From UHGV virus genome UHGV-0135878: 39,269 bases of DNA; one strand, given 5' to 3'. This stretch comes from a virus. Within the stretch, counting starts at the first letter, position 1, and every line of letters starts with the position of its first letter. A model generated the notes under the pieces. That model saw nothing but the letters and a program-made list of their open reading frames with translations, did no database searches and was not told the DNA's origin. Both the position numbers and the translations under genes were made by a program. Shown piece after piece: positions 1 to 38,335 of this stretch.

Positions 1-537
1 ATGCGTCGCGCTAACGATCCGCAACGGCGAGAAAAAATTATCCAGGCCACGCTGGAGGCGGTGAAACTTTACGGAATACATGCTGTTACGCACCGCAAAA
101 TTGCTACCCTTGCCGGGGTACCGTTGGGATCGATGACCTACTATTTTTCAGGAATTGATGAGTTGTTGCTGGAGGCGTTCAGCAGTTTTACTGAGATTAT
201 GTCCCGGCAATATCAGGCATTTTTTAGCGATGTTAGTGATGCTCAAGGCGCATGCCAGGCTATCACCGATATGATCTACAGCTCACAGGTTGCAACGCCG
301 GATAATATGGAGCTGATGTACCAGCTCTACGCGCTGGCTAGCCGAAAACCGCTATTAAAAACGGTAATGCAAAACTGGATGCAGCGCAGTCAGCAAACGC
401 TCGAACAATGGTTTGAACCCGGAACCGCCCGCGCGCTTGATGCGTTTATTGAGGGGATGACGCTGCATTTTGTCACCGACCGTAAGCCGCTATCGCGCGA
501 GGAGATTTTGAGGATGGTTGAGAGGGTTGCAGGGTAG
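1..537 (+). CDS. rcdA: TetR-family transcriptional regulator RcdA (YbjK)
   Basis: 178-aa ORF from ATG at 1 with N-terminal TetR-type HTH; recognised from memory as E. coli YbjK/RcdA, the K-12 neighbour of ybjL. Confidence 0.85.
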
Positions 538-659
538 TAGATAAATTTTAGATAACAAAAAACCCATTTATGTAAACGGGTTAATGAAAACAATAAGTTA
601 GAGTAAAAACAATAAGTTGGGTTGGTGGTCAGTGGTGGTTATTACGGGGTAATGCCAAC

Positions 660-682
660 CGCTGCCGCCACTTTGTCGCCAT
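660..682. repeat. Candidate attL core (cgctgccgccaCtttgtcgccat)
   Basis: 22/23 identical to 36415-36437; abuts the stop codon of the 682-1437 gene; exact crossover not determinable from sequence alone. Confidence 0.45.
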
Positions 683-1437
683 TAAGAAGGTGATGACTGG
701 TCTTTGATAGCTAGAAGTCCCCATGAGAAAACTTCTTTGGCATCGCTTATTAAACCATCCTCTATAAATTGCTGTGTCTCAGCCCATTCCATATCACTGA
801 CATAGTGTACTAGCGTATTTGTCTGGATTGGGATTTCTTCAAATTGCTCGATTCGACGTTTGAAACTACATTCAGGATCTGAACAACGGCATGTGCGTCT
901 TATATCATCTACCCTACAGAGTAAAAGGGAGTAGGGGGTCTCAAGTGGTGCACAGTAGTCAACCCGATAGTTATGAGATCGTGTTGGCTGGATGTTATGA
1001 AGGGGATCTAAAAGCACAATATTAAAAATTTGGTTCTCATCCCAAAAGCCAACAACTCTACCAAGGGCAGTAGATATCTGAAATTGTAGTAAGGGGTATT
1101 CTTCGTCATTTTCAAGGTAATCAGTGTCAATCCATGTCAACTGGCTACGTTGTACGGGTATATTTCTTTGTTCCCAGTTTATTGAATGATAGCGCCATGC
1201 CTCTCTATCGGCCCCACTGGTAATAAAGCCTTTGACATCTTTTTGAGAAAGCTCAGATAATTTTCCAATTAGTGAAACAAACCAGCCTGAATTGGTACGG
1301 TCTAACCCAAAATTATCAATTTGACGCCAATAACGAAAAGAAAATGCCCACTTTTTTTCGGGTGCAGAGGGCGTTTTTGGGGTCTGTGCCGCTGTTGGTT
1401 GATTTGCCCCTAATGAAGGGCGGTAGGCGTTCACCAT
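682..1437 (-). CDS. Hypothetical 251-aa protein, downstream partner of the Panacea-domain gene (candidate toxin/effector)
   Basis: ATG at 1437 lies 5 nt after the stop of the upstream gene (operon arrangement); AT-rich; no motif recognised; Cys cluster CRCSDPEC; stop codon overlaps attL repeat. Confidence 0.6.
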   Translation of the reverse strand: MVNAYRPSLGANQPTAAQTPKTPSAPEKKWAFSFRYWRQIDNFGLDRTNSGWFVSLIGKLSELSQKDVKGFITSGADREAWRYHSINWEQRNIPVQRSQLTWIDTDYLENDEEYPLLQFQISTALGRVVGFWDENQIFNIVLLDPLHNIQPTRSHNYRVDYCAPLETPYSLLLCRVDDIRRTCRCSDPECSFKRRIEQFEEIPIQTNTLVHYVSDMEWAETQQFIEDGLISDAKEVFSWGLLAIKDQSSPS

Positions 1438-2075: not shown

Positions 2076-3095
2076 TTACGTAGTTACCATAGTTGCTAAT
2101 GGATTAAAACGTAGCGCTGTTTCTAGGTGGTCAGGAGCCAGATGAGCATAGCGCATGGTCATTTTTATGTCGTGATGCCCAAGGATTTTCTGCAGAGCCA
2201 GGATGTTTCCGCCGGACATCATAAAGTGTGCTGCGAACGTATGACGCAGAACGTGTGTTAGCTGACCGCGTGGAAGCACAATAGAAGTCTTATCCATTAC
2301 AGATAAAAACTGGAAGTAGCAGTCAGTGAAGAAATTGAAACCGTCTAGGGCAATGATTTCCTCATACAGCTCTTTGCTAATCGGAATGCTTCGGTTCTTT
2401 TTGCCTTTGGTCCTGACGAATGTGATCCGGTATTTCGTAACCTGAGAACGGGTTAGGTTCACAGCTTCGCGCCAGCGTGCTCCGGTGCTCAGACAGATTT
2501 TAACGACAAGAGCGAGCAGGGGACTTTGGCGGTTGCAGTCGTACAATAGCTCGGTAATTTGTTCATGCGTCAGCCAGGCCATCTCCTTTTCTGCGATGGT
2601 GAATTTTCGCATGTTCTCCAGTGGGTTCGGATACGACCATTCGCCCAGGCGGGATAGTTCGCTAAAAACACTACTTAGATAGCTTTGCTCCAGGTTAATG
2701 GTGACCGGGCTTGCTCCTTTCTTCCATTTCTCGCTGAAGTAGATCTCGCCTGTCAGGCGTTTATCTCGATAGTGGGCAAACATTTTAGAGGTGAGATCAG
2801 TTGCAAGGGGATTGCCCAGAGCGTCAACCATCAGCAGCAATTTGTCATAGACATGCTGCCCAGCAGTCAGTGATTTACCATGTAGTTTGAACCATAGCTC
2901 AACCACGTCTTTTAGTGTTCGACGATCCACTGATTCACCTAGCCAGGGCTTTGCTTCGGTTTCTTCCATCGTGTGACGCTCAAAAGCCAGTGCTTCGCCT
3001 TTGGTGGCGAATTGTTTACGCACACGACGCCCACTACGTCCGGCGGGGTAACATTCGCAAAGCCATTTTCCTGTGGTGAGTTTTCGTACAGCCAT
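2076..3095 (-). CDS. int: Tyrosine integrase (P2 Int family)
   Basis: ATG at 3095 chosen over track start 3251 (P2-like N-terminus MAVRKLTTGKW); C-terminal LRHTFA...MRYAHL catalytic R-H-R-Y signature. Confidence 0.9.
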   Translation of the reverse strand: MAVRKLTTGKWLCECYPAGRSGRRVRKQFATKGEALAFERHTMEETEAKPWLGESVDRRTLKDVVELWFKLHGKSLTAGQHVYDKLLLMVDALGNPLATDLTSKMFAHYRDKRLTGEIYFSEKWKKGASPVTINLEQSYLSSVFSELSRLGEWSYPNPLENMRKFTIAEKEMAWLTHEQITELLYDCNRQSPLLALVVKICLSTGARWREAVNLTRSQVTKYRITFVRTKGKKNRSIPISKELYEEIIALDGFNFFTDCYFQFLSVMDKTSIVLPRGQLTHVLRHTFAAHFMMSGGNILALQKILGHHDIKMTMRYAHLAPDHLETALRFNPLATMVTT

Positions 3096-3283
3096 AAAAA
3101 ATGCCCTCCAATAGAGAGCATTTTTACTGTATGTATAACCAGTGTCAATATATGAAATCCTGCGACCATACATCTCACTGAAGCCATAATGAAGTAGGCT
3201 ATTCTTTTTGCTATGTGAGCATGTAACTTTTGCGGTTAACCTGTGGCTCATTTTTATTTTAGGCGCAGATATAAAAGCAAAAG

Positions 3284-4185: not shown

Positions 4186-4407
4186 ATGAGACCTAACATT
4201 TCAATCACTCTTACTACACCTCATGTGACTATTGAACGCTATAGCGAGCTGACAGGGCTATCCATCGATACCATCAATGACATGTTGGCTGATGGACGCC
4301 TTATCCGTCACCGTCTGCGCAAAGATAAAAAACGCGAAAAAGTGATGATCAACATAGCAGCAATGACCGTTGATGCGCTTTCAGAATGCAATCTAAACCT
4401 TAATTAG
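4186..4407 (+). CDS. Apl/Cox-like excisionase-regulator (small HTH protein)
   Basis: 73-aa first gene of the early operon; RBS GAGGAA; position equivalent to 186 apl / P2 cox. Confidence 0.55.
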
Positions 4408-10357: not shown

Positions 10358-10888
10358 TTAACCTTGTATAGTTATTTGAATATTTTCTTCATTGACACCA
10401 AAGTATAGGGCTAGCCCTGCTTTTGCCTCCTGAAGTGTTAACGGCTTAACTACATTTTCTTCTTCTTCTTCGTACTCATCACCCGCTTGATCGACAATCG
10501 AATTAGTCGGGGTTAATTTTGGAAGAGCTTTAAATTCCAACTTGTCAGCCTCAATGCCAATGTCTTTGAGGTTGCGATAAGAAACGGGATTCCGATTGCC
10601 ATCCCATTGTCCTGGGATGTCAATTTCAGCATAAGAATTGATGTTTATGATCCAGCGTTTAGGGTTTTCTGGAGCCCTGCTTACTCCCGAGATTCGACCG
10701 ATCATAAAAGCATGATGATGTTTTGCTTCTTGTGATCCCCAGTCCTTTCTCGAATTTTGTACACAAACTAAATATTCGTGCTTAGCTGCATGGCTGGCGT
10801 CAAGTCTCCATGCTTGGCTTCCCCCTGTGTTCAAAATCTCTGTTAAACCACGAGCAGTAAGTACAGTAATACAGTTGGTAGTAGCCAT
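10358..10888 (-). CDS. Hypothetical 176-aa protein at the P2 old/tin position (accessory gene)
   Basis: ATG at 10888; transcribed opposite to the early operon, just left of the cos-like site; acidic EYEEEEE stretch; no motif recognised. Confidence 0.6.
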   Translation of the reverse strand: MATTNCITVLTARGLTEILNTGGSQAWRLDASHAAKHEYLVCVQNSRKDWGSQEAKHHHAFMIGRISGVSRAPENPKRWIININSYAEIDIPGQWDGNRNPVSYRNLKDIGIEADKLEFKALPKLTPTNSIVDQAGDEYEEEEENVVKPLTLQEAKAGLALYFGVNEENIQITIQG

Positions 10889-11205
10889 TGAATTGTGACT
10901 CCGTCTTTTTTAGAGAAATACTATTGATGAATGTAGTTTACGTATTTTTTTATTGAGTAGTCAAGTTAGTATTCTGCTCGTTATTGGCTGTTTTTTGAGT
11001 GTTGTGAGTTAGTACTTTGTGTAGTACCTCTTGGTTTATGAGGGTTAAATCTAAGTTATGACAAAGGGAGGCAGGGGGAACGCGCAGCGCAAGGTGTACA
11101 GGAGGCCATAAGGACTCACTTGAAGTAAGAAAAGATCGATAAAGCAACAATGCATGTCTATGCCGCATGAATTCGCATGATCGTTTGAGGATCGTTTTAG
11201 CTGAG

Positions 11206-11233
11206 GCCCGCTAGGAATGGCGGGCTTTTGTTT
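11206..11233 (+). terminator. Rho-independent-terminator-like hairpin (gcccgc-8nt-gcgggc then TTTTGTTT)
   Basis: 6-bp GC stem and T-run on the + strand about 45 nt before the cos-like motif; no upstream + strand ORF. Confidence 0.35.
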
Positions 11234-11274
11234 ATGTCATGCAAGTGCATGAAAACCACTACATAAAGCGGGCA

Positions 11275-11293
11275 GGCGTGGCGGGGATACGAG
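11275..11293. other. Candidate cos (cohesive end) site, ggcgtggcggggatacgag
   Basis: First 13 nt match the GGCG(A/T)GGCGGGGA cohesive-end motif I remember for P2/186; lies in a GC-rich island within AT-rich DNA between the old/tin position and Q. Confidence 0.45.
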
Positions 11294-11658
11294 CGCGCGC
11301 ACCTTCTAATAATTACAAAGTCATTGAGATATGCAGGGGATATTCTATATTTCATTTAATCGATATACCCAACCGAGCTACTAGATTGATTGTGCAAAGT
11401 TAATCAACTAACTATTAGGTGAAAATATATTCCCAATAGTTATCATTCAGATTTATTTAATTCCTCGTTCGTATCATTTTTTATTTACCAATAAGCTGTG
11501 TGATTTTTATGTTAAATTAACGGCAATAGCATAATATGTTGTGAAAATGTGATGAGATCTACTTGATATTATTTTTATAATGGTGTTAATTGTTAGTCAG
11601 CTAAACGGTGTTACATTTTATTTTCAACGAAATTAAGTTTTTGTCATGGAGAGGCTTT

Positions 11659-12480
11659 ATGAAGGTTAGTTTTGATGTTGTTATTAAAAGTGGTGCTTAT
11701 GATGTTGATATGGATTACGCGCTTAAAACATTAGCTGGTACATCGAATGTAGTTTGCCTTTTGGCAGAAGCGATACTTCGTGGAAGAATTATTGAACGGC
11801 GTACCCATGCAAATGATATCAGAGCAAAGCTTAAACACAGTTTTCCGGGTTCTTATGGTCAAAAATTTGACATCGAGATAAATGACTCGACACTGATTTC
11901 TCGTTTGAATTCTATGGGACGTAGTGTTTTCTCTGAAGTAATGAGTTACTATATTTGTGAAGCGCTATATGTTGAGCATAATGGTTTGACAGATGCAGCA
12001 CAGAAAATCATTGATAGTTTAGTTGCAATAGAGGATGAGCTTACAAAGCGAATTCGTTCCCCACTAAAAGATATGCATAAAGTCACTACAATGAATGGTT
12101 ATAATGTTGAGTTATCTTATCGAAAACCTGGATCACCAGAAAACATTATAACGTTGACACCAGAAACTGAGATTAATATTTCAGATACTGAAATACTACA
12201 GGTTTCCCATGATATATCTGTAATCATAACTCGTTTTAATTCAATGACAGGAAATGGTCGACTTATACTTGAAGGGTATGAAGAACATGGCACTGTAGCA
12301 TTTGGATTTTATGATAATTTAAGATATGTAACAGAAAACCATAAAAGACAAATCACTCAAAACTTGCATCACAATAATGGCCTTCCATCAGATAGATGGC
12401 AATATATGAATTTAACTGTAAGTGATATGGTTCTTCCTAGTGGGGATGTTATTAAATATCTAATTCGTAATATACCTTGA
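11659..12480 (+). CDS. Hypothetical 273-aa soluble protein, first gene of accessory operon
   Basis: ATG at 11659 with RBS GGAGAGG (track start 11608 is upstream in-frame); strongly AT-rich; no motif recognised. Confidence 0.65.
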   Translation: MKVSFDVVIKSGAYDVDMDYALKTLAGTSNVVCLLAEAILRGRIIERRTHANDIRAKLKHSFPGSYGQKFDIEINDSTLISRLNSMGRSVFSEVMSYYICEALYVEHNGLTDAAQKIIDSLVAIEDELTKRIRSPLKDMHKVTTMNGYNVELSYRKPGSPENIITLTPETEINISDTEILQVSHDISVIITRFNSMTGNGRLILEGYEEHGTVAFGFYDNLRYVTENHKRQITQNLHHNNGLPSDRWQYMNLTVSDMVLPSGDVIKYLIRNIP

Positions 12481-12490
12481 TAGAGTTATT

Positions 12491-13186
12491 ATGAAAATTC
12501 ACTCTATTAAAATCTTTGCTGCATTAGTAATTATAATTACGTGGTTGAGTTATTTTGCAAAGTTTGGTGATTGGTTTAACTTCTCGAGTGATACGGCTGT
12601 TTGGGGGCAGTTTGGGGATTTTTTAGGAGGGGTGATTAATCCACTGCTTACATTTATATCTGTTGTTTACTTGATTAACTCTGTAAATCTTCAGCGAGAG
12701 GCGAACGCTAGCCTGATTGCGCTTGAAGAGTTTAAGAAAACTGAGACCAAATTTTATAACATGCTTGAGTCACAACGAAGTGGCTTCGAAAGCTTTAAAA
12801 TTGTAGATAGTGTGGATGGGAAACCTTTAGTTATCAAGGACGGTGACGCGGTTACATATATTGAGGATGTTGTTGTAGAAATGGTAATCCAAGGAAGTAC
12901 AAAAGGAGAAATCTCAAATAAAATAGGTGGAATGGATAAAGCGGATAATATATTTAGTATAGTGAGGCGCTTTCATAATATTATTAAGTTGATTAAAAGG
13001 GAAATTCCGGAAAACTTAAGAAGTGAATATTATGATAGTTTAGTTAATATGACTGAGTATAAGCAAATATGTCTTATATTAATATCAATGGAGCTTTTTG
13101 ATTGGCCTATTTTAAGTAGCATTGATGAAAGTGGTGTGTTTAATATTGAGGCATTAATGGAATATAGAAAAGCATTTAGACCATAA
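12491..13186 (+). CDS. Hypothetical 231-aa membrane protein (two N-terminal TM helices plus ~170-aa soluble domain)
   Basis: ATG 10 nt after upstream stop; hydrophobic segments at about residues 7-26 and 41-62; AT-rich. Confidence 0.65.
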   Translation: MKIHSIKIFAALVIIITWLSYFAKFGDWFNFSSDTAVWGQFGDFLGGVINPLLTFISVVYLINSVNLQREANASLIALEEFKKTETKFYNMLESQRSGFESFKIVDSVDGKPLVIKDGDAVTYIEDVVVEMVIQGSTKGEISNKIGGMDKADNIFSIVRRFHNIIKLIKREIPENLRSEYYDSLVNMTEYKQICLILISMELFDWPILSSIDESGVFNIEALMEYRKAFRP

Positions 13187-24266: not shown

Positions 24267-25161
24267 CCTTTCGCAGTTGCCTGCACCGCAGATTGTGGAT
24301 GTGCCGGACTTTGAGATGCTGCTTGCCGAACGCAAGGCAGAATTTGTGGCGCTTCATCCGAAAGATGAGCAGGAAGCAGTGATCCGCACGCTGGAACTGG
24401 AATCTGAACCCGTCACCAAATTGTTGCAGGAGAACGCTTATCGTGAGTTGCTTCTGCGCCAGCGCATTAACGAAGCCGCGCAGGCGGTGATGGCGGCTTA
24501 TGCCATAGGGAGCGATCTGGACCAGCTCGCTGCCAATTACAACGTGAAACGCCTGACGGTGACGCCTGCTGATGATGACGCTGTGCCGCCCGTTGCAGCT
24601 GTGATGGAAAGCGATGAAGCGTTACGCCTGCGTGTGCCTGCAGCCTTTGAGGGGCTTTCAGTTGCGGGGCCAACTGCAGCTTATGAATTTCATGCCCGAA
24701 GCGCCGACGGTCGGGTGGCGGATGCCAGTGCAACCAGTCCGGCACCTGCAGAGGTGGTGCTGACTGTCCTTAGTCGCGAAGGCGATGGAACAGCAGAAAA
24801 AGACTTGCTGGATGTGGTGGAGAAAGCCCTGAACAGTGAGAACGTCCGCCCGGTGGCTGACCGTCTGACGGTTCGCAGCGCAGAAATCATCCCGTACCGC
24901 GTGGAAGCCACCATTTTTCTCTATCCGGGACCGGAAGCCGAGCCGGTAATGGCAGCGGCAAAAGCCAGCCTGCAGAAGTACATCGCCAGTCAGACGCGGC
25001 TTGGTCGGGATATTCGCCGTAGCGCCATTTTTGCCGCCCTGCATGTTGAGGGTGTGCAGCGTGTGGAGCTGGCTTCGCCGTTGGCGGATGTGATCCTGAA
25101 CAAAACGCAGGCGGCATCATGTACGCAGTGGAGCGTAACCAACGGAGGAACGGATGAATAG
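24253..25161 (+). CDS. J: Baseplate protein (P2 gpJ family)
   Basis: 302 aa from ATG at 24253 with RBS CAGGAGCAGAG. Confidence 0.9.
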   Translation: MAVIDLSQLPAPQIVDVPDFEMLLAERKAEFVALHPKDEQEAVIRTLELESEPVTKLLQENAYRELLLRQRINEAAQAVMAAYAIGSDLDQLAANYNVKRLTVTPADDDAVPPVAAVMESDEALRLRVPAAFEGLSVAGPTAAYEFHARSADGRVADASATSPAPAEVVLTVLSREGDGTAEKDLLDVVEKALNSENVRPVADRLTVRSAEIIPYRVEATIFLYPGPEAEPVMAAAKASLQKYIASQTRLGRDIRRSAIFAALHVEGVQRVELASPLADVILNKTQAASCTQWSVTNGGTDE

Positions 25162-28503: not shown

Positions 28504-28558
28504 TGCAGAGATAATGGCTAACTGGCATCATCCCCGGTTTTTATTCAGGGGGATGCTC

Positions 28559-29125
28559 ATGCTTATTGGCTATGTACGCGTGTCAACAAATGACCAGAAC
28601 ACCGATTTGCAACGTAATGCACTGAACTGCGCGGGATGTGAGCGGATTTTTGAGGATAAAATCAGTGGCACTAAGTCCGACAGACCAGGGTTGAAAAAAC
28701 TGCTCAGGACACTATCGGCAGGAGACACGCTGGTTGTCTGGAAGCTGGACAGGTTGGGGCGCAGTATGCGGCATCTTGTTACGCTGATAGAAGAGTTGCG
28801 TCAGCGAGGCGTGAATTTCCGAAGCCTGACTGACAGTATTGATACCAGCACCCCAATGGGCCGTTTCTTTTTTCATGTCATGGGTGCCCTGGCTGAAATG
28901 GAACGCGAACTGATAGTTGAACGTACCAGGGCAGGGCTGGCTGCAGCTCGTGCCAAAGGCAGAGTAGGTGGACGCCGTCCTAAGTTGACCACCGAACAGT
29001 GGGCACAGATTGGGCGTTTACTCGAGGCCGGAGAATCAAGACAGCGTATTGCACTGATTTTTGATGTGGGCGTTTCTACCATTTATAGAAAATTTCCGGC
29101 GAATGAGAACAATGAATCGCCCTGA
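28559..29125 (+). CDS. Serine DNA invertase (Gin/Hin/Pin/Cin family)
   Basis: 189 aa from ATG at 28559; N-terminus MLIGYVRVSTNDQ with catalytic Ser, C-terminal HTH. Confidence 0.9.
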   Translation: MLIGYVRVSTNDQNTDLQRNALNCAGCERIFEDKISGTKSDRPGLKKLLRTLSAGDTLVVWKLDRLGRSMRHLVTLIEELRQRGVNFRSLTDSIDTSTPMGRFFFHVMGALAEMERELIVERTRAGLAAARAKGRVGGRRPKLTTEQWAQIGRLLEAGESRQRIALIFDVGVSTIYRKFPANENNESP

Positions 29126-36105: not shown

Positions 36106-36195
36106 TTCTTCGCAATGGAGAACTTTTAAGTTTGCAAAATGGAATAATGCGGTATCATTATTGTGAATTTAGCAAAAATGGGGAGAACTCGAAAA

Positions 36196-36414
36196 ATGAT
36201 GATTTGCCCACTGTGTGGAAGTGCCGCCCATACTCGCAGCAGTTTTCAGGTATCTTCATTGACCAAAGAGCGTTACAACCAGTGCCAGAACATTAACTGC
36301 AGCCATACTTTTGTTACCCATGAAACTTTTGTTCGTTCGATTGCAACGCCAAAAGAGTCAAATCCGGTTCAGCCGCATCCAATGAAATCAGGACAGGTAG
36401 CGCTCTCTCTTTGA
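36196..36414 (+). CDS. ogr: Late gene activator Ogr (zinc-finger)
   Basis: 72 aa from ATG at 36196; CPLC...CQNINC matches Ogr/Delta zinc-finger; last prophage gene before attR. Confidence 0.85.
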   Translation: MMICPLCGSAAHTRSSFQVSSLTKERYNQCQNINCSHTFVTHETFVRSIATPKESNPVQPHPMKSGQVALSL

Positions 36415-36437
36415 CGCTGCCGCCATTTTGTCGCCAT
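36415..36437. repeat. Candidate attR core (cgctgccgccaTtttgtcgccat)
   Basis: Direct repeat of 660-682 with one mismatch; begins 1 nt after the ogr stop. Confidence 0.45.
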
Positions 36438-36500
36438 CGTTAAAAAACAGTGCTTCTAACATCATGATCTTAAACACCATAAATTTCAGGCAACAAAAAA

Positions 36501-36537
36501 CCCATCAACCTTGAACCGAAATGGCGGGGTTGATGGG
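36501..36537 (-). terminator. Rho-independent terminator downstream of ybjL (minus strand)
   Basis: Perfect 10-bp stem cccatcaacc/ggttgatggg with 17-nt loop; on the minus strand it is followed by TTTTTT. Confidence 0.5.
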
Positions 36538-36649
36538 CTCCACAAAATGGGGACATCAAAGAAAAGCAGTGGCACTAATTAAGACTGATGCCCTGCGGAA
36601 AAGTTCTGCGGTTGTGCAAAAAAATTTCATTTTCAGGGCAACTTCAGTT

Positions 36650-38335
36650 TTATCCTAATCCTGGCCATACCATGACGATGATTGTCCCTGCCAGCGTCAG
36701 CAGGACGTTGGCGATTGCGTAGGTGCCCGCATAGCCCAGCGCAGGGATGTTACTGCGAGCTGTATCACTGATGATCTCCATTGCCGGCGCGCAGGTGCGT
36801 GCGCCCATCATTGCGCCGAACAACAGTGCGCGGTTCATTCGCAATACATAAGCACCGAACAAGAAACAGATAACCACGGGCACAAGACTGACAATTAATC
36901 CGGCAATCAACATCTGACCGCCAATCGCGCCCAGGCCGTTATTAATACCGCTACCGGCGCTCAGACCAACGCCTGCCATAAACACCATCAAGCCGAACTC
37001 TTTCACCATGCTTAATGCACCTTGCGGAATGTAACCGAAGGTCGGGTGGTTAGCACGCATAAAGCCCAGCATAATTCCGGCGAATAACAACCCGGCAGCG
37101 TTCCCCATGCCGAAACTGAATGTGCTGAACTGGAAGGTGATCATCCCGATCATCAGCCCAATAACAAAGAAGGCGCAAAATGCCAGCAGGTCAGTGACCT
37201 GGCTGTGAATCGAGATAAAGCCGATGCGATCGGCGATGGTTTTTACGCGACGGGCATCACCGCTGACTTGTAAAACGTCACCTTTGTTAAGCACGACGTT
37301 GTCATCTATCGGCATCTCAATCTGGCTACGAATGACGCGGTTAAGGAAGCAACCGTGATCGGTCAACTTCAGTTGTGCGAGACGTTTACCTACAGCGTTA
37401 TGGTTTTTAACGACCACTTCTTCAGTGACGATACGCATGTCGAGAAGGTCACGATCGAAAACTTCTTTACCGTTACGGAAGCTGGGATCGAGTCGGGCAT
37501 GGGCGTCGGGATAGCCTACCAACGCTATTTCATCGCCCATTTGTAGCACGGCATCACCGTCTGGATTTGCCAGAATCCCGTTACGTCGAATACGTTCAAT
37601 GTAGCAGCCGGTTTGTCGATAAATACCCAGTTCACGCAGATTTTTGCCGTCGGTCCAGGCCACCAGCTCCGGGCCGACGCGATAGGCGCGGATCACCGGT
37701 AAATAAACCTTACGGTTGGCATCAGTGTCCAGGCCACGTTCGCGGGCGATTTGCTGGGCGCTGGTCTGTAAGTCCTGATGCTGCAATTTCGGCAAGTAAC
37801 GCGCACCAACAATCAAACTCACCAGACCGATTAAATAGGTTAAGGCATACCCGAGGCTCAGATTATCCAGTGCCAGTGAGAGCTGCCTGCTTTCCATGCC
37901 GAAATGACGCAGTGTATCGCCAGCACCGACCAGAACCGGTGTCGACGTCATAGAGCCTGCTAACATACCGGCCGTCAGGCCAATATCCCAGCCAAACAGC
38001 TTACCTAACCCTAAGGCGATCACCAGCGCACTGCCAACCATCACCAGTGCTAACATTAGGTAATTTTTCCCATCGCGAAAAAAAATGGAAAAAAAGTTCG
38101 GTCCGGCTTCGACCCCGACGCAGAAAATAAACAGCATAAAGCCAAGATTAAGCGCATCGGTGTTAATGCTGAAATGTTGTTGGCCTAATAACAGCGATAC
38201 GACTAAAACGCCAATGGAATTACCCAGTTGGATCGAACCAAGTCGTAACTTTCCGAGACATAGCCCAAGCGCGAGGACCACAAATAATAACAGAATGTAA
38301 TTCCCATTTAACAATTCGGCGACGTTTATATTCAC
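36650..38335 (-). CDS. ybjL: Putative AAE-family transporter YbjL
   Basis: 561-aa polytopic membrane protein with central soluble domains; recognised as E. coli YbjL. Confidence 0.9.

Follow-up and report, generated by a model that had tools for sequence, protein, structure and literature searches.

Attachment-site organization of a 186-type, P2-like prophage between rcdA and ybjL: a 14-bp core and predicted integrase arm-type sites

Described attachment sites and the prophage at rcdA-ybjL

The attachment sites of phages P2 and 186 and the prophage PhiECO1 provide the closest described systems for the locus analysed here. Two arm-site consensus sequences, tgTGGaCa for P2-type and tgccGCCActt for 186-type phages, have been put forward together with three positions in the N-terminal part of the integrase (Int) that are proposed to discriminate the arm type (Nilsson, Cardoso-Palacios and Haggard-Ljungquist, 2011; PMC3448106). 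The same study published PhiECO1 in Escherichia coli HS at coordinates 916812-948276, and its table gives PhiECO2 (ATCC 8739), PhiECO3 (CFT073) and PhiSEN1 (S. Typhi CT18) the integration site of PhiECO1. In the P2 record, the elements follow each other in the order ogr, P arm (24293-24320), IHF, core (24356-24383), Cox, P' arm (24470-24496) and int, with arms that are tandem pairs of sites 11 bp apart and a P' arm located inside the last int codons. The 186 record lists 'predicted' Int arm-type sequences with the consensus YAYCGCCAYTY, three of them to the left and two to the right of attP. A defence hotspot between int and att has already been reported in P2-like phages (PMC13586616).

In this work we analyse the attachment region of UHGV virus genome UHGV-0135878, a stretch of 39,269 nucleotides that we refer to as the window and whose features are collected in Table 1. 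Our best explanation, which we hold as a whole with high confidence, is that the window contains a P2-like prophage of 186/Fels-2 type, belonging to the PhiECO1 integration group, which its tyrosine integrase has inserted in the ybjL terminator between rcdA and ybjL, that an exact 14-bp repeat is its true att core, and that a 23-bp repeat is predicted by its sequence to form pairs of integrase arm-binding sites inside the phage. A sequence-only reading of the window had described both repeats, remarked on their opposite order on the two sides and considered the att core ambiguous, with a preference for the 23-bp repeat. The opposite order stands, with the 14-mer outermost on both sides, and so does the notion that one repeat is the core and the other an arm-type feature; the assignment of the two roles is reversed.

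The locus resembles 186 in its arm motif (YAYCGCCAYTY in 186 versus TGYCGCCAYT in the window) and in the tandem arrangement of the sites, 11-12 bp apart in both arms. Phage 186 also carries an accessory gene, orf69, between the P' arm and int, in the position of the window cargo, and the terminator of its lysogenic operon is annotated within attP, on the P-arm side; the window likewise has a terminator in attP. The two systems differ in their targets, 186 inserting at the tRNA gene ileY, in its 3' end, through a 36-bp core whereas the window prophage uses the terminator of a protein gene with a 14-bp core, and in their site inventory, which in 186 comprises 3+2 annotated arm sites with footprinted IHF and Apl sites and in the window 2+2 predicted arm sites. 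The order of elements in P2 and the 11-bp spacing of its tandem pairs are those of the window, and the position of its P' arm within int is that of the cargo-free relatives of the window prophage. P2 departs from the window in its arm motif (TGTGGACA versus TGYCGCCAY), in its 27-bp core at another host site and in its immunity region (C/Cox versus CI/Apl/CII).

Integration of PhiECO1 at the same rcdA-ybjL site is confirmed in E. coli HS, where rcdA ends at 916795 and the published start of PhiECO1, 17 bp past the stop, corresponds to base 554 of the window, in the 14-mer. The site was identified through these coordinates, the literature found on P2-like attB sites making no mention of ybjL. 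The rcdA-attL junction (window 1-760) is 100% identical in strain Br_190_kylling, and this strain has its CI and the adjacent small protein in common with HS. The Klebsiella phages KP12 (OM835953) and 4LV2017 (KY271398, Elveevirus) have an attP nearly identical to that of the window (98.2%); the stretch from attP to int in KP12 matches a further cargo-free relative, L002, and 4LV2017 adjoins ybjL-like terminator sequence in Klebsiella. Neither phage carries a cargo at the position between P' arm and int, both differ from the window prophage in their hosts and attB left arms, and the Klebsiella attB has 19-20 nt in common with attP, versus 14 nt exactly and 27 nt loosely in the window.

Several sequence records related to this site call for comment in their own right. 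The KP12 record is filed under Vequintavirinae, and its att region is Peduoviridae-like. The record of Escherichia phage vB_EcoM-813R9 includes host rcdA and ybjJ, which makes it a prophage excerpt overrunning attL. In E. coli strain 3908 (NZ_CM128561.1, 4413000-4430000), a ~9-kb deletion derivative of a related prophage occupies the same att site, retaining int, cI, early genes, a D fragment and ogr. Genes for an AAA ATPase and a hypothetical protein separate int from cI in this derivative, and a further small cargo gene is located between attL and int.

Table 1. Features of the window that bear on the attachment sites (positions on the 39,269-nt stretch)
Feature	Position	Strand	Remarks
rcdA	1-537		left host flank
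attL copy of the core	554-567	+	AACAAAAAACCCAT; looser 27-nt similarity 541-567; empty-site match ends at 566/567
Phage-side intrinsic terminator, int/cargo operon	561-582	minus	hairpin AACCCGTTTACATAAATGGGTT, then TTTTGTT; 3' half and T-tract are the core
IHF-like motifs	588-619	+	AAACAATAAGTTA 588-600; AAACAATAAGTTG 607-619; each one mismatch to WATCAANNNNTTR
Remnant of ancestral int 3' end	642-681	minus	codons for ...GDKVAAAVGITP and stop; severed from int by cargo insertion
P'-arm pair of predicted Int arm-type sites	660-682	+	TGCCGCCAC 663-671; TGTCGCCAT 674-682; 11 bp apart
Two-gene cargo, P' arm to int	682-1910	minus	~1.4-kb insertion just beyond the left 23-mer
251-aa protein	682-1437	minus	no Pfam or PADLOC match
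155-aa SocA/Panacea-domain antitoxin	1443-1910	minus	Pfam SocA_Panacea, E = 2.1e-19; RefSeq annotation agrees
Tyrosine integrase, 339 aa, 186-type	2076-3095	minus	Pfam Int_N and Phage_integrase
ogr/Delta-type late activator	36163-36414	+	Pfam Ogr_Delta, E = 6.7e-22; final gene ahead of the P arm
P-arm pair of predicted Int arm-type sites	36415-36437	+	TGCCGCCAT 36418-36426; TGTCGCCAT 36429-36437; 11 bp apart
attR copy of the core	36492-36505	+	AACAAAAAACCCAT; 27-nt similarity 36479-36505; empty-site match from 36479
ybjL intrinsic terminator	36492-36541	minus	stem CCCATCAACC/GGTTGATGGG, then UUUUUUGUU; intact at attR
ybjL	36650-38335	minus	right host flank

The 23-bp repeat and the integrase

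The two copies of the 23-bp repeat read CGCTGCCGCCACTTTGTCGCCAT on the left and CGCTGCCGCCATTTTGTCGCCAT on the right and differ by one mismatch. A search of the window with up to three mismatches allowed yields no further copy, and none of 100 shuffles gives any. Their position next to the ogr and cargo-gene stops, part of the earlier description, is borne out: the right copy begins at the base directly following the ogr stop, and the left copy has a single base in common with the stop of the ORF that encodes the 251-aa protein on the minus strand. Within each copy, TGYCGCCAY is present twice at a spacing of 11 bp, once as TGCCGCCA(C/T) and once as TGTCGCCAT. This motif occurs six more times elsewhere in the window, and only the paired and positioned copies are informative. 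The sequence TGCCGCCACTT at 663-673 is an exact match to the 186-type consensus, and by our own count 20 of the 23 positions of the left copy are identical to the P'-arm sequence of 186, CTACCGCCACTTTATCGCCATTC.

Conservation of the paired motif extends to phages with quite distinct integrases. Pairs 11 bp apart, in one orientation on both arms, are present in 186, Eganvirus MHG39 and Felsduovirus SEN8, the int-proximal side of SEN8 having a single arm site only; the integrases of these phages are only 54-56% identical to that of the window, and the 186 core (ileY) is known to differ. Among closer relatives, the P-arm pair is conserved in KP12, 4LV2017 and strain 3908. The strain 3908 derivative has kept the 23-mer and the core hairpin, much of the P'-arm sequence between them having diverged, and the one substitution in its P'-arm 23-mer makes this copy identical to the P-arm copy.

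Identity of the window Int amounts to 56% with 186 Int and 35% with P2 Int, and alignment with both reveals conservation of the catalytic-region motifs around MRYAHL and of an N-terminal segment. A mechanically called int ORF (2076-3251, minus strand) starts at an upstream ATG and comprises 391 aa; the alignment of relatives and RefSeq support the start at 3095 that yields 339 aa. The N-terminal arm-specificity segment reads GKWLCECYP in the window, GGWICELYP in 186 and GRYEVDIRP in P2, and the three residues proposed to be discriminating are W, E and Y in the window Int and in 186, versus Y, D and R in P2. With W, E and Y in its integrase and an exact tgccGCCActt sequence in its arm, the locus displays both features of 186-type arm specificity.

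A different ligand for the 23-mers, namely an Apl/Cox directionality factor or IHF in place of the arm-binding domain of Int, would fit the observation that the P' arms of 186 and P2 contain Apl and Cox sites which are likewise arranged as direct repeats. We regard this alternative as very unlikely, since in 186 and P2 those sites are confined to the P' side, in the interval that separates the core from the arm sites, whereas the 23-mer is present on both arms, matches the Int arm consensus and not the Apl region of 186, and tracks the N-terminal type of Int.

The left 23-mer coincides with the end of int in relatives that have no cargo. In the cargo-free L002, KP12 and 4LV2017, int extends across the P'-arm sites, its stop being at the position that corresponds to 642, and the Int tail reads ...ATLPSGDKVAAAVGITP. 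The Int of L002 is 96% identical to the window Int over 336 aa and continues with a 14-aa tail that is missing from the latter, which ends in ...ATMVTT after residue 336. In the window, int is 1.4 kb away from the P' arm because the cargo has been inserted between them. The left 23-mer thus codes for the Int tail in relatives, lies exactly at the cargo boundary and overlaps the stop of the cargo ORF, and it might accordingly be seen as a by-product of gene ends or as a scar of cargo insertion, for instance a target duplication, with no role in recombination. We assign very low probability to this view of the repeat. The cargo-free L002, KP12 and 4LV2017 already have both 23-mers, and the second 23-mer is found ~36 kb away, beside ogr, instead of flanking the cargo; moreover, the paired motif is present in both arms of 186, MHG39 and SEN8, and the P' arm of P2 likewise lies in the 3' end of int. 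The presence of both copies in cargo-free relatives and free phages leads us to reject a cargo scar or duplication, and we retain the prediction that the 23-mers are Int arm-type sites.

The empty site, the 14-bp core and the geometry of attP

The position of the core is given by comparison with genomes in which the site is empty. Joining positions 254-553 of the window to positions 36492-36791 rebuilds an attB of 600 nt with one copy of the 14-mer. This sequence is contiguous at 100.0% identity over its 600 nt, spanning rcdA and ybjL, and an uninterrupted rcdA-ybjL site is present in 4294 of 5423 E. coli genomes. The sequence-only reading had given rcdA and ybjL as adjacent in K-12 and had proposed aligning both flanks to a prophage-free strain: the two genes are indeed neighbours in prophage-free genomes, the K-12-like empty site having the order ybjJ, rcdA, ybjL, and the junction falls within the 14-bp repeat. 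The ambiguity is thereby resolved, and the observation itself is not refuted.

The individual flanks, compared with 5426 complete E. coli genomes, delimit the element from either side. The match to the left flank (1-760) extends to 566/567 in most of the genomes listed, and reaches 681 or beyond in 1126 genomes with a related prophage. For the right flank (36300-37100), the match starts at 36479 in genomes without ogr at the site and covers the full length in ~1110 occupied genomes. Roughly one fifth of complete E. coli genomes have a relative of this prophage at the rcdA-ybjL site. Bases 568-681 and 36415-36478 are missing from the empty-site genomes, which places both copies of the 23-mer inside the element. 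In the K-12-like empty site, the 14-mer that is duplicated at the two prophage ends occurs once, and a search for the 23-mer at up to three mismatches returned no matches.

We therefore reject, on the sequence of the empty site, the 23-bp repeat as att core: this option, under which the 14-mer would be host DNA on both sides of attB, owing to convergent terminators or to chance, builds on the longer and statistically stronger of the two repeats, and on one that directly adjoins the outermost phage gene at either end, but it is extremely improbable, because it calls for an empty site composed of 14-mer, 92 nt, 23-mer, 41 nt and 14-mer, and the actual site lacks the 23-mer and contains the 14-mer only once, the intervening bases (568-659 and 36438-36478) being missing from 4294 empty-site genomes and contiguous in phage KP12.

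The 14-mer, AACAAAAAACCCAT, is exact at both ends of the prophage. It is the right-hand part of a longer similarity, absent from the earlier description, that the repeat finder detected over 27 nt with three mismatches (ATAAATTTTAGATAACAAAAAACCCAT on the left, ATAAATTTCAGGCAACAAAAAACCCAT on the right). Host-type bases T, A and T at 549, 552 and 553 and phage-type bases C, G and C at 36487, 36490 and 36491 are each kept to their own side, and the sequences diverge directly to the right of 567; both strand exchanges are thus located within 554-567. Inspection by eye for core-type Int sites with a 7-bp overlap yielded no convincing inverted repeat centred inside the 14 bp, and the only clear palindrome near the core, with its centre at 570-571, belongs to the terminator stem and lies beyond the shared core. 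As a repeat, the 14-mer provides weak and non-discriminating statistics when taken alone, and we do not rely on them: the 39-kb window contains 18 repeated 14-mers, in ~12 separate repeat pairs, against ~3 expected from shuffles. Two junction regions of ~170 bp share a 12-mer or longer in 1 of 2000 shuffles. The argument for the 14-mer as core is one of position and comparison.

With the first base of the 27-nt core as reference, the P-arm 23-mer of the circular attP starts 64 bp ahead of it and the P'-arm 23-mer 119 bp beyond it. Measured from start to start, the spacing of P arm, core and P' arm is 63/114 bp in P2 versus these 64/119 bp in the window. In the KP12 record, D and ogr are followed without interruption by a 23-mer, the core, the second 23-mer and int, at the 98.2% identity given above to the attP rebuilt from the window ends, and the 4LV2017 record annotates attL/attR at the same AACAAAAAACCCAT core. 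The P' arm of the window further contains two IHF-like motifs, which we putatively assign to IHF on the basis of their match to the consensus, the background of such matches being ~1 per kb over both strands. By our own reading, the second of these motifs is AATCAATGAGTTA in strain 3908, a perfect consensus. The P arm (36438-36478) holds no IHF match at up to one mismatch.

Following the precedent of lambda, P2 and 186, Int would bind the arm sites through its N-terminal domain and hold the core through its core-binding and catalytic domains. A bend introduced by IHF at the candidate P'-arm sites would allow one Int to bridge arm and core. An Apl/Cox-type protein would direct excision, and the product of the ORF at 4186-4407, a small protein in the apl position with no Pfam match, may be considered a candidate for this factor.

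Terminators, cargo and prophage boundaries

Both 14-mers had been described as the A-tract side of terminator-like hairpins, and folding confirms this: on the minus strand, each belongs to a hairpin that is followed by UUUUUUGUU. The minus strand of the 14-mer, AUGGGUUUUUUGUU, corresponds to the 3' stem half and U-tract of the ybjL terminator. At attR, this terminator is identical in sequence to that of the empty site, with the stem CCCAUCAACC/GGUUGAUGGG, of which the 14-mer supplies the descending half together with the U-tract, and the minus strand of 36475-36560 (86 nt) folds at -25.8 kcal/mol (z = -2.5). The terminator scan reported nothing at attR, where the loop of the ybjL hairpin is larger than the scanner's 8-nt limit; the hairpin is seen in the fold. 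At attL, the scan found that the P' arm of the phage provides its own ascending stem half, in AACCCGUUUACAUAAAUGGGUU followed by UUUUGUU, and strain 3908 retains this phage-side hairpin as a perfect palindrome, CCCATTTAT/ATAAATGGG. Since each att end has a complete hairpin and T-tract, integration leaves ybjL with its own terminator and provides one to the leftward int/cargo operon.

The two genes inserted between P' arm and int resemble a toxin-antitoxin pair of the PanA type whose toxin is uncharacterised. PADLOC returned no matches for either of its two proteins, and the Panacea cargo is present in only 24 of 5426 E. coli genomes. PhiECO1 of HS also has a gene between attL and int, but this is a 270-bp hypothetical gene as opposed to the Panacea antitoxin and 251-aa partner of the window, and strain 3908 has a different small gene there. 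All three arrangements start no more than 6 bp past the outer arm site. The constancy of this insertion boundary suggests that the arm pair may be needed in cis and may mark the outer limit of attP. A broader proposal would combine three elements: that the boundary outside the outer P'-arm site, in dispensable last int codons, is a preferred point of entry for accessory or defence cargo in phages of the PhiECO1 type, that the arm pair limits every insertion, and that the Panacea pair is a new toxin-antitoxin or defence module. Taken jointly, we consider these rather doubtful, and, if they were true, only the exact junction rule and the uncharacterised 251-aa partner would be new.

Other regions of the prophage contain candidate accessory genes. 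[quoted passage not shown] Four ORFs of 176, 72, 290 and 231 aa with no Pfam or PADLOC match lie between the replication and portal genes (10358-13186), in the position of the classical P2 old/tin defence hotspot. A serine resolvase/invertase (28514-29125, plus strand; Pfam Resolvase and HTH_7) is located beside the tail-fibre genes, which points to a Gin/Cin-type invertible segment in the tail-fibre region.

The attachment site described here is an ordinary one, its core, arm consensus and cargo position between int and att being already known from the literature or from database annotation, and knowledge of P2/186-type recombination is unchanged by this result. What the analysis contributes is the delimitation of the element, the boundaries of the prophage now being fixed at 554 and 36505. 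Taking the 23-mer as core would displace its left boundary by ~100 bp and its right boundary by 55-77 bp, and phage DNA would be mislabelled as host. As a rule, where a prophage has two direct repeats whose order is reversed from one end to the other, the core is the outer pair, and the inner pair is located in the arms of attP. For the host, the intact ybjL terminator at attR implies that transcription of ybjL should terminate normally in the lysogen.
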